From Candidatus Heimdallarchaeota archaeon B3_Heim (GTDB lineage Archaea; Asgardarchaeota; Heimdallarchaeia; Hodarchaeales; Hodarchaeaceae): a stretch of 13,223 bases of DNA. The stretch spans positions 1-13,223 of the forward strand of contig NJBF01000066.1 of assembly GCA_003144275.1 (NCBI GenBank), given 5' to 3'. The notes under the pieces are model-generated. The model was not told the DNA's origin and made no database searches. It saw nothing but the letters and a program-made list of their open reading frames with translations. The position numbers and the translations under genes were made by a program. The first letter of the stretch is position 1, and every line of letters begins with the position of its first letter. Below, in pieces: positions 554-7,829 of the stretch.

Positions 554-1669
554 ATGATTTCCAATGAATTTACATTTTCTCAGCTTCAGTATATTGTCCT
601 CTCTTGGCTCTCTGTTTTATTAGCCATAAGTGGAACAATCATTGTATTTAGGGAATATCGAAAACTACCAGCTCGTCCATTAATCTATCTGGAATTAATT
701 TTATTATTTTTTATTCCATATAATATATGTCATGGCTTACTTTTCCTAGTCGGTTTTGAAAATGAGCCTCTCATGATATTGCTCTTTCGTGTGCAAATGA
801 TATTTCTCTTTATTGTCGTTTTCTTTCTTGTTTTTTTTATTGAATCATTAAGAGCTGATACACCATCGCCCCTCATCTTGATGATGCTTGGTCTAGGATT
901 GGGGAACGGATTGGTTCTATCGGTGTTTCCAGAGTCTGTACAATTCAGTTTAGAAATTGGGCCGTACTTATCCGATGTAGCACGGATTATTTTTGGGATC
1001 GATTTGATCTGCTTGGGTTTTCTTCTATCAATAAGAATTAGCAGGTTTATTCCATTTGTCCCTCGGCCTTACTTAAAACCAGCCCTTCTGTTTTACTTTG
1101 GATGTTTAAGTCCGATTCTCTTTCCTTTAGTGCTTATAAGCACAAAATTATCTTTAGTTATTCTTGGAATTGAAATATTAAGTTTAGCAGTAGGTACGTT
1201 CATTGTGATTATAGCTATCTTAGTTGATGAGCGTGTCTTAAGAGTTCTACCCTTCAATGTGTATCGTGTTTCAGTCATCAACATGAATATAGGGCTATCG
1301 ATTTTTGATGTTCTATTTGAAGCTAAACAGAGTGGACCTAATTCCAGTGTTCTTATTCCACATTTGATGACAGCAAATTTTCAATTCGTACAATCTGTCA
1401 TTCATGATACGGAAAAAATTCGTTCTATTGCTACCGATAATTATTATTTTATCTTTGAAGCTTATAAAGATATCGTTGCTTTTGTTATCGCAGACCAAAC
1501 GTCAATGTTGATTAAATCTGCTCTGAAAGAATTTGTGAAGAATTTTTACGTGAAATTTGGTGAAAATATTGATTCTTCGGAAATTAGTCAGTATAAGGAA
1601 GCAGGAACGTTATTAGATCTATATTTTGCTTTTCTTCCCTCACATAAAATAGTCTCTATTGGTTCTTAA
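554..1669 (+). CDS. 7-transmembrane protein with a C-terminal cytoplasmic longin-like domain (371 aa)
   Basis: Seven hydrophobic segments in aa ~10-224, then a soluble domain (~aa 233-365) with a beta-beta-alpha-beta-beta-beta-alpha-alpha pattern (VYRVSVIN, GLSIFDVLF, LIPHLMTANFQFVQSVI, IRSI, YYFIFE, IVAFVIAD, LIKSALKEFVKNF, YKEAGTLLDLYF), matching Asgard longin-type domains as I recall them. ATG start, TAA stop. Confidence 0.75.
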   Translation: MISNEFTFSQLQYIVLSWLSVLLAISGTIIVFREYRKLPARPLIYLELILLFFIPYNICHGLLFLVGFENEPLMILLFRVQMIFLFIVVFFLVFFIESLRADTPSPLILMMLGLGLGNGLVLSVFPESVQFSLEIGPYLSDVARIIFGIDLICLGFLLSIRISRFIPFVPRPYLKPALLFYFGCLSPILFPLVLISTKLSLVILGIEILSLAVGTFIVIIAILVDERVLRVLPFNVYRVSVINMNIGLSIFDVLFEAKQSGPNSSVLIPHLMTANFQFVQSVIHDTEKIRSIATDNYYFIFEAYKDIVAFVIADQTSMLIKSALKEFVKNFYVKFGENIDSSEISQYKEAGTLLDLYFAFLPSHKIVSIGS

Positions 1670-1689: not shown

Positions 1690-1742
1690 GAATTAGAGGG
1701 TGAGCTTTTTATTTTATGCATAGTAACACCCGTTGATATTTA

Positions 1743-5079: not shown

Positions 5080-6594
5080 TTAGTCAATATTATTGGGAAG
5101 TTTAATAGTAAAAATACATCCAGTGTTTTCTTCACCGCTAACAACCTCAATGGTGCCTCCATGGGCTTGAATGATAGCTTTTATAATATAAAGACCCAAA
5201 CCAGTTCCACTCTGAGAATATTGGGTTGGTTTATGAGCGAAAGGTCGGAATAATTGAAGCATACCATCATTAGAAATCCCTGTTCCTTGATCTTGAACGA
5301 CTATGGACAATTCGTCAGATTTACTGAGAATTCGAATATTAATCGATGAATCTTCAGGTGAATTTTTCACAGAATTCTGCGTTAAATTTTCAACAGTTTG
5401 TTTGATTCTTTCACTATCCAGGTTAAACGATAAATTTGAGTCTGAAGTGACATTAGTATCCCAGAATATATTTCGAGTTGGAAAGAGAATCGCAATTTGA
5501 TCTTTTATTTCATTAATGAACTCAAATAAGTTTACATCTTTACGATCAATGGTAAATAGATTCGCTCGGACGGCGGATAGATCATGTACATTTCTAACTA
5601 ATCTCACAAGTCGATTTACATTACGAGACATTTTCTCAATAATAGCAAGGAGATCTTCTTGAGAAAGATCAGGGCCAATTTGTAAAACGTCAATGTAGCC
5701 ACTTAGGACAGTTAATGGAGTTTGAAGTTCATGGGCAGTTGTGGCAATAAAACGTTCTTGCAACTCCTGAAGTGATTTTTCTTGTGTGATATCCGAGATA
5801 ACACAAAAATTTCCAACTACTTGATTATCTGGATCAGTTAGTGAGGATAGAATTAACCTTGTCTCTACTTCCACACCCGATTTATTCAAGAAAGTAATTT
5901 CAGTGGGGTTTGAAGTTGATTGAGTATCTAAAGAGAGTAAAACTTTGTTAAATTTGTCGTGAGATGTTTCAACCATAAAATCAGTAATTTTATTGCCAAT
6001 GAGCTCACTTTCTGAAAATCTTAACATTTCACATAACGCTTTGTTGATGAAAATTGTTTCTTGAGAGGAATCAAAAAGCCAAGCTCCGTCACCCATTTGA
6101 GTAATTAACTTTCTAAATTTATGTTCACTTTCACGAAGAGCTTTCATCATACCTTCGTATTTCTTCTCAACATACATAATTTTTTTAGCAGTTTTTTCAT
6201 CATTTGATTGATACTTGATGATTGTGGTCACTAAATTAGGATTTTTGGTCTTAATCATTGGTAATTTGTGAATAGTATAGGCAGTGGGATCCTTAGGGAA
6301 GGTATCAACGCTTTCGATCTGTGATTCTTGGGAATTAAAGATCTTTTTGTAATCTGCTATCCAAGTGTTGGTTAAGAAAGGGATAGCCTCTGTAATATGT
6401 TGATCTTTACCTGGGGGTGGTAATTCCCAACTATTCATCAAACGTACTAGTGCTTCATTATAAAACTGGATTTTCAAATGAGTATCTACTACAAAGATTG
6501 GGTCTGAGATTAAACTAAATGCCTGAAAAAGTGGCCTAGTTTTACTTACATCAATTTGTCTGATGTCAGTATTTGTAGTTATAATCTTAGGCAT
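5080..6594 (-). CDS. Soluble PAS-PAS-HisKA-HATPase sensor histidine kinase (504 aa), paralog of 1743..3191
   Basis: H-box AHELQTPL (His288, 5731-5733); N-box ENLTQNSVKN; G1 DQGTGI; LFRPF; G2 GTGLGL; motif-by-motif similarity to the first kinase. Confidence 0.93.
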   Translation of the reverse strand: MPKIITTNTDIRQIDVSKTRPLFQAFSLISDPIFVVDTHLKIQFYNEALVRLMNSWELPPPGKDQHITEAIPFLTNTWIADYKKIFNSQESQIESVDTFPKDPTAYTIHKLPMIKTKNPNLVTTIIKYQSNDEKTAKKIMYVEKKYEGMMKALRESEHKFRKLITQMGDGAWLFDSSQETIFINKALCEMLRFSESELIGNKITDFMVETSHDKFNKVLLSLDTQSTSNPTEITFLNKSGVEVETRLILSSLTDPDNQVVGNFCVISDITQEKSLQELQERFIATTAHELQTPLTVLSGYIDVLQIGPDLSQEDLLAIIEKMSRNVNRLVRLVRNVHDLSAVRANLFTIDRKDVNLFEFINEIKDQIAILFPTRNIFWDTNVTSDSNLSFNLDSERIKQTVENLTQNSVKNSPEDSSINIRILSKSDELSIVVQDQGTGISNDGMLQLFRPFAHKPTQYSQSGTGLGLYIIKAIIQAHGGTIEVVSGEENTGCIFTIKLPNNID

Positions 6595-6716: not shown

Positions 6717-7829
6717 TTATTTTTGTATATTTACCATAGCGTTCTTAGTAGCATGAAGGGGTTCATCCACCATATATTCTTGAGATGCTTTCCATTTTTC
6801 ACTTGTGAAATCAAAATTTTCTGGATAAAAACAATAAAGCATAGACCCCTGTGTTTTTGTATCAAGTACATGGATTTTTAAGTTAGGGATATTTTGCCAG
6901 CAAGCATAGGTAAAATCAGAGGCTTGTCCTGGACTCATCGTTATCCAAATGAGAATTTTATTGTCTTTTAGTATGTCAAGAGACAGGAAGAAAGGAGGTG
7001 CATCCTTTTTTATACCATTATACAATCGTGCTTGTCTAAGGAGATCAACTTCTGACCCAAAAGCAATAATTGTTTCAGTAAGGTCAAAAATCTTTCTATC
7101 ATACATAAATCTAATTGCCCCGACATATTTCTCTTTCACAATTGGATATTCAGTCTCGACTACTTCTCTATTTAGGCCTGTCTTGTCACTAAGTTCGTCT
7201 ATTGATAGTGAGGCATTCTCTGTTAAAACTTCAAGGATTTTACCTTGGGCAGGTGTAAATTCTGAGAGATTTCTTCTTGTCTCTAAAGGAGATGGTAGAC
7301 GTGGAGGATCTACTTCAAGGGTTGCGAACCAAATTGGCCAAATAAAACTCCAACTTGATGTCCCCGCGTTATATTTCTCTAGATTTGGATAGGATTCAGT
7401 TCTAACTCCGTTACTTTCTGAAATTTCAAACGAAGTAATTATTTTCTTTTCTACCAACGTTTCAAATAACATCTCAATATATTTTCTTGTACCAATCGGA
7501 ATATCAAACTGAATAAATACCCCAATATTTCCCCCAAAAATTCTTGTCCTAAAGTGTGTATAAGGATGAGCAGTACATAATTCTTCCATCACTTCCAAGC
7601 AAGAATGATCGGGAAGAACTGTAATAACATGAATACGTTGTAAACCTAAAGATTCAGGATTAAAGATTGCGACCGGATTTTTAATGACCCCTTTCGCTTT
7701 CAAAAGATCATATCTTTCAGTTGCTTCAGATTCTGGGACTTTAATTTGGCGAGAGAGCTCACTTATCGACATGAAAGGGTTCTGATTTAGCGCTAAAAGG
7801 ATCGCAAAATCTTCAAATTTGAGCTCCAT
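6717..7829 (-). CDS. Tandem (internally duplicated) Lrp/AsnC-type transcriptional regulator (370 aa)
   Basis: Two HTH segments: DFAILLALNQNPFMSISELSRQI and QGKILEVLTENASLSIDELSDKTG. Each half ends in a similar motif (YPNLEKYNAGTSSW / YPENFDFTSEKW). Confidence 0.8.
   Translation of the reverse strand: MELKFEDFAILLALNQNPFMSISELSRQIKVPESEATERYDLLKAKGVIKNPVAIFNPESLGLQRIHVITVLPDHSCLEVMEELCTAHPYTHFRTRIFGGNIGVFIQFDIPIGTRKYIEMLFETLVEKKIITSFEISESNGVRTESYPNLEKYNAGTSSWSFIWPIWFATLEVDPPRLPSPLETRRNLSEFTPAQGKILEVLTENASLSIDELSDKTGLNREVVETEYPIVKEKYVGAIRFMYDRKIFDLTETIIAFGSEVDLLRQARLYNGIKKDAPPFFLSLDILKDNKILIWITMSPGQASDFTYACWQNIPNLKIHVLDTKTQGSMLYCFYPENFDFTSEKWKASQEYMVDEPLHATKNAMVNIQK

Follow-up and report, generated by a model that had tools for sequence, protein, structure and literature searches.

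A seven-helix membrane protein of Hodarchaeales with a predicted longin-fold output domain and relatives throughout the Asgard archaea

The DNA analysed here, hereafter the window, is a stretch of 13,223 nucleotides (positions 1 to 13,223 of contig NJBF01000066.1, assembly GCA_003144275.1) from Candidatus Heimdallarchaeota archaeon B3_Heim, whose genome we designate G000. On its forward strand lies a Hodarchaeales gene that starts with ATG at 554 and whose stop codon ends at 1669 (554..1669, + strand; from a list of open reading frames, ORFs, and their translations). It encodes a protein of 371 amino acids (aa), P0001, in which seven predicted transmembrane (TM) helices are followed by a short linker and a cytoplasmic domain of longin fold. 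In our view P0001 is probably, although far from certainly, a kinase-type seven-helix membrane sensor whose longin serves as a non-enzymatic transmitter acting through protein contacts.

The gene is well represented among related archaea. We found 28 homologues at 48-90% identity, all named 'hypothetical protein' of Hodarchaeales, Heimdallarchaeota or Promethearchaeota, and an exhaustive phmmer search with 50% clustering yielded 159 cluster representatives at E<1e-3, which with few exceptions are 350-365 aa long and align end to end. Because these homologues and representatives share size and layout, P0001 is not a chance ORF. Conservation is described below with an alignment of the P0001 orthologue group (A1), an alignment of 67 family members (A2), a whole-protein profile (A3) and a distant set of 91 representatives. 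Searches of Pfam and NCBIfam with P0001 returned no match of any kind and no kinase domain; HisKA/DHp and HATPase_c are both absent, and P0001 itself is not a two-component sensor histidine kinase. An AlphaFold2 (AF2) model of the whole protein, built on 21 homologues, has a mean pLDDT of 78. Foldseek gave only weak rows with this model (E>=3e-3), and the C-terminal domain was therefore folded alone. An earlier reading made from the letters only (the sequence-only reading) had proposed seven TM segments, a C-terminal longin fold and the lack of a kinase domain, and all three are borne out by hydropathy, AF2, Foldseek and Pfam.

The N-terminal module spans aa 1-225 (554..1228, + strand) and was defined by hydropathy, AF2 helices, loop charges, ESM Atlas matches and hhalign. 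Kyte-Doolittle hydropathy marks seven hydrophobic segments, all encoded on the + strand: aa 11-33 (TM1, 584-652), 43-66 (TM2, 680-751), 73-96 (TM3, 770-841), 105-126 (TM4, 866-931), 139-161 (TM5, 968-1036), 177-197 (TM6, 1082-1144) and 200-224 (TM7, 1151-1225). Seven long helices of the AF2 model coincide with these segments. The loops predicted to lie inside carry 10 lysine or arginine residues, versus 1 in those predicted outside, which indicates an N-out, C-in arrangement and a cytoplasmic C-terminal domain. Hydropathy, AF2 and charges agree in describing a seven-helix, N-out unit at the N terminus of a putative signalling protein.

Two conserved elements stand out in this bundle. The motif FIESLR (aa 95-100; 836..853, + strand), where TM3 ends on the cytoplasmic side, was identified in A1, where E97 and R100 are invariant; position 97 is E in the orthologue group and D in 86% of the 91 distant representatives. 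The outer loop between TM4 and TM5 (aa 127-139; 932..970, + strand), with an invariant G136-P137, is modelled by AF2 as a beta-hairpin of strands 129-132 and 136-139, and G136 is kept in 85% of the distant representatives. This loop is a candidate for an outward-facing functional element. Superfamily-wide, the bundle retains only the acidic residue at the end of TM3, the glycine of the outer loop and a few prolines and glycines.

Structural comparison suggests that the bundle is akin to the input modules of prokaryotic signalling proteins. An ESM Atlas search with aa 1-230 retrieved N-terminal 7TM regions of HisKA_7TM kinases, LytS-type kinases, an MCP family and GGDEF/EAL proteins at TM-scores of 0.72-0.81, including a score of 0.76 against a cluster that is 90% HisKA_7TM. 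When the TM profile of the family was aligned by hhalign to 10 Asgard HisKA_7TM domains, the probability was 92.7% (E 4e-7, 193 columns) versus 0.7% for a reversed control, although shared hydrophobic composition may inflate scores between TM profiles, a bias that the clean reversed control addresses in part. Direct comparison of P0001 with HisKA_7TM (PF16927) gave no match at E<=0.1. The gathering threshold is thus not reached, and we call the bundle HisKA_7TM-like rather than a member of that family. The only true HisKA_7TM domain of G000 lies elsewhere (C45:13922-14605), and the domain is rare among Asgard archaea, occurring in 7 of 81 genomes.

Further evidence for this relationship comes from genome G288, in which three proteins (L069, 97-1959; L070, 90-2369; L071, 76-1737) carry the 7TM module followed by HisKA, variously with PAS, HATPase and REC domains, and lack a longin. 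A hidden Markov model (HMM) of the TM part alone matches them at E 1e-57 to 1e-66, and these kinases, too, fall below the PF16927 model. Since the TM-only HMM recognizes them, the bundle is an input module used by real histidine kinases, and the G288 proteins show how the output can be swapped behind one and the same input module.

Comparison of the bundle with the PDB gave generic seven-helix matches, with rhodopsins at Z 15-17 (Kin4B8 at Z 16.9) and G-protein-coupled receptors (GPCRs) at Z 13-15, values of 13-17 being typical for any helical bundle according to the alignment tool. A derivation of the 7TM part from GPCRs is unlikely; its resemblance is to the N-terminal 7TM modules through which prokaryotic histidine kinases, MCPs and GGDEF proteins receive input. 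We also considered and rejected two other identities. P0001 is no rhodopsin, because TM7 (aa 200-224) lacks the retinal-binding lysine, and the rhodopsin matches are at the level of fold. A membrane enzyme or PAQR-type protein was dismissed as well, since neither A1 nor the distant representatives contain a conserved cluster of histidines or aspartates.

TM7 is joined to the C-terminal domain by the linker DERVLRVLPFN (aa 225-235; 1226..1258, + strand), whose L-P-F is nearly invariant across the superfamily: P233 and F234 are conserved at 90% or more in A3, and among the distant representatives 93% retain L232, 97% P233 and 90% F234. With a length of about ten residues, this linker would hold the longin near the helix bundle.

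The longin-fold domain itself comprises aa 236-366 (1259..1651, + strand), as judged from the domain model, Foldseek and VIA-align. Its elements are b1 (aa 236-243), b2 (248-255), a1 (267-285), b3 (291-293), b4 (298-304), b5 (307-313), a2 (318-338) and a3 (344-357). Folded alone on A2, aa 228-371 gave a model (m30b98aeb0bb2) with a pLDDT of 81 and a pTM of 0.79, and DSSP assigns to it E9-16, E21-28, H40-56, E64-66, E71-77, E80-86, H91-111 and H117-130 in domain numbering. Both the whole-protein and the domain-only model have the order b-b-a-b-b-b-a-a with a five-stranded sheet and no N-terminal helix.

When this model was compared with the PDB by Foldseek, the best 50 rows were all longins, with E values down to 4.6e-5, and included Fuzzy, the AP sigma and mu subunits, COPI zeta and delta, Ykt6, Sec22b, VAMP7, Mon1-Ccz1 and the TRAPP subunits Bet5 and Trs23. 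VIA-align, which is independent of Foldseek, ranked Sec22 (Z 12.4, 120 aa, 2.7 A), VAMP7 (Z 12.0), Fuzzy (Z 11.6) and synbindin (Z 11.3) above the roadblock proteins MglC (Z 9.0), LAMTOR (7.4-7.6) and MglB (7.3), whose alignments are limited to the first ~110 residues. A PAS or GAF identity for the domain was rejected, as no such entry is present among the best 50 of either Foldseek or VIA-align. Hence neither a non-longin domain such as PAS/GAF nor a different number of TM segments, the two outcomes named beforehand as speaking against the sequence-only reading, was observed.

Invariant residues of the domain are most densely clustered in helix a1 and the loop that precedes it (aa 267-285; 1352..1408, + strand), where L267, I268, P269, L271, T273, A274, N275, Q277, F278 and Q280 are unchanged throughout A1. 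This cluster might bind a partner, and it also has the lowest confidence in both models (pLDDT 50-60). Superfamily-wide, conservation is highest in the longin and the L-P-F linker and the TM part is variable, as would be expected if diversified inputs shared a common output.

The distribution of the family is broad within Asgard archaea. Matches to the A3 profile were detected in 279 of the 301 sampled Asgard genomes and in 88 of the 90 that are of high quality. Full-length matches occur in at least nine families, with several copies per genome, and neither Pfam nor NCBIfam has a model for the family. In the ESM Atlas, matches to the whole structure fall into three unannotated clusters that are almost purely Promethearchaeota. 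A word-based search with the A3 profile recovered 25 proteins, all but two of which were already among the known homologues; a search of the same kind for longer fused forms of P0001 found none, which is weak evidence.

Fused variants are nevertheless present in the sampled genomes and are informative about the role of the longin. L073 (625 aa; 124-2001, G071:C63) and L074 (640 aa; 234-2156, G177:C64) have the architecture 7TM-longin-HisKA-HATPase, and are matched by the TM HMM at E 1e-37 and 2e-36 and by the longin HMM (aa 225-358) at E 1e-26 and 2e-22, respectively. Relatives with this architecture occur in 9 of 61 genomes, representing six genera of family f14; seven of these fusions are 45-65% identical to L073 and one is 33% identical. 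Their retention in six genera indicates that the 7TM-longin-kinase form is maintained by selection. In proteins of this type the longin lies behind the sensor bundle and ahead of the kinase core, the usual place of PAS, GAF or HAMP domains, and the kinase-fused variants show that a longin can hold the transmitter position of a two-component sensor. Another protein, L072 (159-2189), has a C-terminal region behind its 7TM-longin part with a sub-threshold match to a winged helix-turn-helix (wHTH) domain (HTH_24, E 1.6e-4, 21.6 bits versus a cut-off of 21.9).

A different arrangement is found in genus g45, in at least seven genomes of which two 7TM-longin genes lie head to tail, 40-70 nt apart (for example, G270:C144:27875-30017, G264:C126:36709-38872 and G153:C44:350-2509). 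Such tandem pairs would fit longin heterodimers. Separately, the ESM Atlas contains similar predicted longins fused to Response_reg in Thermoplasmatota (a cluster of 248 members) and to OmpA/BON or SH3_3 in bacteria; on the evidence of these models, longin-like modules in signalling proteins may reach beyond the Asgard archaea.

These observations suggest how P0001 could work. The N-terminal seven-helix bundle, oriented N-out and C-in, would serve as an input module like those of Asgard and bacterial histidine kinases, chemoreceptors and diguanylate cyclases, and would sense a signal in or across the membrane. The ten-residue linker with its L-P-F would connect the bundle to the cytoplasmic longin, which on receipt of the signal would shift its position or pairing and so alter a contact with a cytoplasmic partner. 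Because the longin has no catalytic signature, it is most likely a transmitter, and it may be dimeric. The proposal of a membrane sensor had already been made in the sequence-only reading, and it is strengthened by the kinase fusions and by the likeness of the 7TM part to histidine-kinase input modules in both structure and profile comparisons.

Several findings weigh against this model. P0001 falls under every Pfam and NCBIfam threshold, those of HisKA_7TM and Longin included. P0001 and its C-terminal domain have no match at E<=1 to any Pfam family, including Longin (PF13774) and Fuz_longin_1 (PF19036), and a profile of the domain finds nothing significant among PDB sequences, the best hit being an unrelated BAR protein at E 0.04. 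As a consequence, both domain assignments rest on predicted structures and on profile-profile comparison. Paralogues in the same genome do give repeated sub-threshold Pfam matches to Fuz_longin_1 and Longin (E 0.002-0.044). Sequence comparison thus assigns P0001 neither to HisKA_7TM nor to a curated family of longins, and it belongs to both at the level of predicted fold; the C-terminal domain, as modelled, is a longin at the fold or superfamily level only. In addition, the TM part has few conserved polar residues, the acidic residue at position 97 being the only one kept superfamily-wide, which leaves some probability to a pure membrane-anchor role. Finally, gene neighbourhoods are not conserved among orthologues.

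For a stand-alone protein such as P0001, a small GTPase of Arf, Rag or Rab type can be put forward only tentatively, and the same applies to another longin or roadblock protein or some other protein; the soluble kinase encoded next to P0001 is a rather unlikely partner. An iterated HMM search of all ORFs of G000 found 26 proteins with this longin, alongside about 67 small-GTPase genes. The paralogues include four longin proteins with about seven TM segments, several longin-wHTH proteins, one TPR-longin and two very large surface proteins with a cytoplasmic longin. Among them, L022 (C61:26711-27811; 366 aa) combines an N-terminal archaeal histone fold (CBFD_NFYB_HMF, 5.5e-8) with a longin at aa 102-190. 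Two others have a C-terminal longin behind an MFS transporter (L025, C4:37618-39285, and L026, C31:59905-61626), with MFS_1 Pfam matches of E 1e-11 and, below the cut-off, E 4e-6. By analogy, the layout of the MFS-longin proteins is reminiscent of eukaryotic nutrient transceptors. The wHTH-longin and TPR-longin forms correspond to the asCOG 'NPRL2-like longin domain'.

Binding of small GTPases is common to the longin and roadblock platforms MglB, Ragulator, the TRAPP core, Mon1-Ccz1, Fuzzy-Inturned, DENN and SRX-SRbeta. It is therefore conceivable, if doubtful, that P0001 is a receptor-coupled GTPase platform, in which a membrane-bound longin, probably as a dimer, would bind an Arf-, Rag- or Rab-like GTPase and act on it as guanine-nucleotide exchange factor (GEF), as GTPase-activating protein or as membrane receptor, the state of the GTPase thereby being governed by the 7TM signal. 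Several GTPase-binding longin platforms are indeed among the structural matches, and both the GTPases and the longin paralogues of G000 are numerous. Moreover, the 317-aa protein L003 (1423-2376, - strand of its locus; C4:13059-14012) consists of an Arf-family GTPase (PF00025, 8.8e-35) followed by a C-terminal longin paralogue, recognized by the longin HMM at E 4e-6 in the first pass, a domain order like that of Rag proteins; L003 also shows a weak match to MAPKK1_Int (LAMTOR3) at E 0.011. At L028, a small-GTPase gene (C4:42840-43418) is separated by 10 nt from the gene of a 256-aa longin paralogue (C4:43428-44198) on the same strand, and the two are likely an operon pair. Ras/Arf-type GTPase genes also occur at distances of 0.9-1.6 kb from two family members, one a 7TM-longin paralogue and the other a distant relative.

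Against this, however, the 13-kb contig contains no GTPase gene, nor do 30 family loci examined with 1.5-kb flanks, and no 7TM-longin-GTPase fusion was seen. The 26 paralogues are no closer to the 67 GTPase genes than random ORFs are (P 0.24, 0.36 and 0.57 at 0.5, 2 and 5 kb), with 3 observed pairs versus 2.1 expected within 2 kb. In addition, the best structural matches, the longins of SNAREs and of adaptor sigma and mu subunits, do not act on GTPases. Tran et al. (PMC10933270) describe Asgard GTPase-longin fusions and report that GTPase and longin genes generally lie outside operons, so that the missing synteny is weak evidence. The sequence-only reading had compared P0001 to a GPCR, as a 'receptor plus GEF' for a small GTPase; with no GTPase on the contig and no enrichment of the paralogues near GTPases, that proposal is unsupported in the form given. 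An extension to the whole network, in which 7TM-longin and MFS-longin proteins would be the input layer of Asgard GTPase signalling, strikes us as speculative and rather improbable: these receptors or transceptors would recruit or switch Arf/Rag-like GTPases through their longins, as a one-polypeptide forerunner of the eukaryotic scheme that leads from a polytopic sensor through longin/roadblock proteins to Rag.

The second alternative arises from the gene that follows P0001. P0002 (1743..3191, + strand; 482 aa) is a soluble PAS-PAS-HisKA-HATPase histidine kinase according to Pfam and starts 73 nt downstream of the P0001 gene on the same strand. The sequence-only reading remarked on its lack of any TM input, and indeed it contains no hydrophobic segment. 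It is a candidate partner. P0001 and P0002 would then be the split halves of a 7TM-longin-kinase system in which the longin docks onto the kinase. Several observations favour such an arrangement. The conserved fusions of f14 supply a Rosetta-stone argument. The two genes are adjacent in four genomes of one genus (G000, G181, G190 and G321) and also at L005, the locus of the homologue P0007. Furthermore, G000 encodes only 8 kinase-like ORFs and 6 receiver domains, far below its numbers of longins and GTPases, and a random gene of G000 lies within 500 nt of a kinase-like ORF about 0.4% of the time, a figure calculated post hoc.

The comparison with G107 points in the opposite direction. This genome, which is 91% complete, carries a 92%-identical kinase with the same downstream neighbour, but the genes upstream are unrelated and no orthologue of P0001 was found at E<=1e-40. 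In the alignment with G107, near-total column identity extends from 1694 through the start codon of the kinase, about 50 nt, whereas the sequence before 1694 is unrelated. The conserved A/T-rich block (1694..1742, + strand) just upstream of the kinase gene is, judging by its composition and position, likely the kinase's own promoter and may include a TATA box. Seven genomes of the genus with orthologues at 48-52% identity have no adjacent kinase: in six, the kinase finds no match at E<=1e-100, and in G238 its only match is 42% identical and lies on another contig. Different, unrelated neighbours surround the homologues P0019, P0021 and P0016. With the adjacency confined to the closest clade and a G107 kinase that does without a P0001 gene, the pairing reflects a single lineage-specific event. 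P0002 also has two PAS domains, which could sense on their own and are missing from the fused forms, and hence a simple gene fission did not produce the pair. Kinase genes are not significantly enriched near the 26 longin paralogues (P 0.1-0.23).

We thus consider it unlikely that P0001 is the membrane sensor of P0002. This had been offered as an alternative in the sequence-only reading, which also called for a synteny comparison across Asgard genomes. The idea gains from the existence of 7TM-longin-kinase fusions elsewhere and loses from the synteny, which shows unconserved neighbourhoods, kinase adjacency only in the closest clade and a kinase that stands alone in G107.

The least probable alternative is that P0001 senses nothing, its seven helices merely anchoring the longin, or shaping or marking the membrane, with the longin as a constitutive scaffold that might pair with other longin or roadblock proteins in trafficking-like or polarity complexes; the poor superfamily-wide conservation of the TM part, with its one conserved acidic position, the g45 tandem pairs, which fit obligate heterodimers, and the fusion of G000 longins to modules as unrelated as MFS, wHTH, TPR, histone fold and large surface proteins, suggestive of a general adaptor, all agree with it, but one helix would do for anchoring, while seven helices of fixed topology, the invariant TM3-end motif and the invariant outer-loop G-P persist among proteins of 48-90% identity, bona fide histidine kinases begin with this TM module, and a short, nearly invariant linker fits conformational coupling better than tethering.

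Other features of the window can be noted briefly. A second soluble PAS-HisKA-HATPase kinase, 40% identical to P0002, is encoded at 5080-6594 (- strand), adjoined by a 370-aa protein with two winged-helix domains (6717-7829, - strand). Pfam detects no receiver domain in the 13-kb window. The first 500 or so positions have a G+C content of 47-56%, versus 36% for the genome and 29-35% just downstream. The fragment encoded there looks like the beginning of a SnoaL/NTF2-like protein and ends at a GTGAGG. This part of the window is absent from all relatives and may be foreign DNA or the end of a chimeric contig.

Asgard archaea possess dozens of small GTPases together with longin and roadblock proteins, and the P0001 family, in which a receptor module of prokaryotic kind is joined to a domain regarded as a eukaryotic signature, offers an entry point to what feeds signals into them; its soluble domain of 140 aa could be cloned as bait. 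Such a bait could show whether GTPases, kinases or both respond to longins in the archaea most closely related to eukaryotes. A GTPase partner would make P0001 the first known regulator outside eukaryotes that links a GTPase to a receptor, MglB-type systems excepted; a kinase partner would make the longin a kinase transducer domain of a new class. Fusions of Asgard longins with signalling domains have been recorded before: Liu et al. (bioRxiv 10.1101/2020.10.19.343400) mention many in which NPRL2-like longins are joined to two-component signalling domains. In the running text of the literature searched, we found no description of a 7TM-longin or 7TM-longin-kinase protein; Fig. 5c of Liu et al. 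and the asCOG tables may hold an earlier mention. New here are a 7TM-longin family that spans the phylum, the relationship of its bundle to the input modules of kinases and the variant in which a kinase follows the longin.

Among known systems, the closest counterparts of the N-terminal half are HisKA_7TM (PF16927) and related 7TM modules of kinases, MCPs and GGDEF/EAL proteins, which likewise have seven helices at the N terminus, ahead of a cytoplasmic output. In those proteins the output is a kinase, cyclase or MCP domain, whereas in P0001 it is a longin. The two also differ in abundance, HisKA_7TM being rare in Asgard genomes and the P0001 family nearly ubiquitous in our sample. GPCRs and microbial rhodopsins share with P0001 a generic bundle likeness over 200-220 residues at 3.5-4.5 A, with Foldseek TM-scores of 0.3-0.49; they are unrelated to it in sequence, and the resemblance is one of analogy that implies no heterotrimeric G protein.

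For the C-terminal half, eukaryotic longins (Sec22b, VAMP7 and Ykt6; the sigma, mu, zeta and delta subunits of AP and COPI; TRAPPC1, TRAPPC2 and TRAPPC4; Mon1-Ccz1; Fuzzy-Inturned) have the same b-b-a-b-b-b-a-a order and align by VIA-align at Z 9-12.4 over 116-130 residues and 2.7-3.6 A, with sequence identities of 8-19%. Unlike the longin of P0001, none of them is the C-terminal output of a polytopic receptor. The longin entries of GATOR1 and the SEA complex score lower (Z 7.5) than the SNARE longins. Roadblock/LC7 proteins (MglB and MglC, LAMTOR2 and LAMTOR3, the C-terminal domains of Rag proteins) share the core sheet and central helix (Z 7.3-9.0) and provide a precedent for the regulation of small GTPases in prokaryotes. 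However, they begin with a helix and are missing both of the C-terminal ones, and their matches span only model residues ~5-112; since these matches are partial, the domain of P0001 is of longin rather than roadblock type. Also comparable are the wHTH-longin, TPR-longin and Arf-longin forms that G000 shares with the asCOG 'NPRL2-like longin' group and with the fusions described by Liu et al. and Tran et al. (PMC10933270).

The logic of P0001, a polytopic protein coupled to a longin, may also have an analogue in eukaryotic signalling. The pairs SLC38A9-Ragulator and LYCHOS/GPR155-GATOR1, in which a polytopic transporter or 7TM protein is coupled to longin/roadblock proteins, would follow the same scheme, and LYCHOS is among the 7TM structural matches of the bundle at Z 13.3, within the range of helical bundles in general. 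These systems are lysosomal nutrient sensors composed of separate proteins that act on Rag GTPases. In P0001, by contrast, sensor and longin are united in one polypeptide, and its connection to a GTPase is hypothetical; should such a connection exist, an arrangement that eukaryotes distribute over several proteins would be found in Asgard archaea within a single one.

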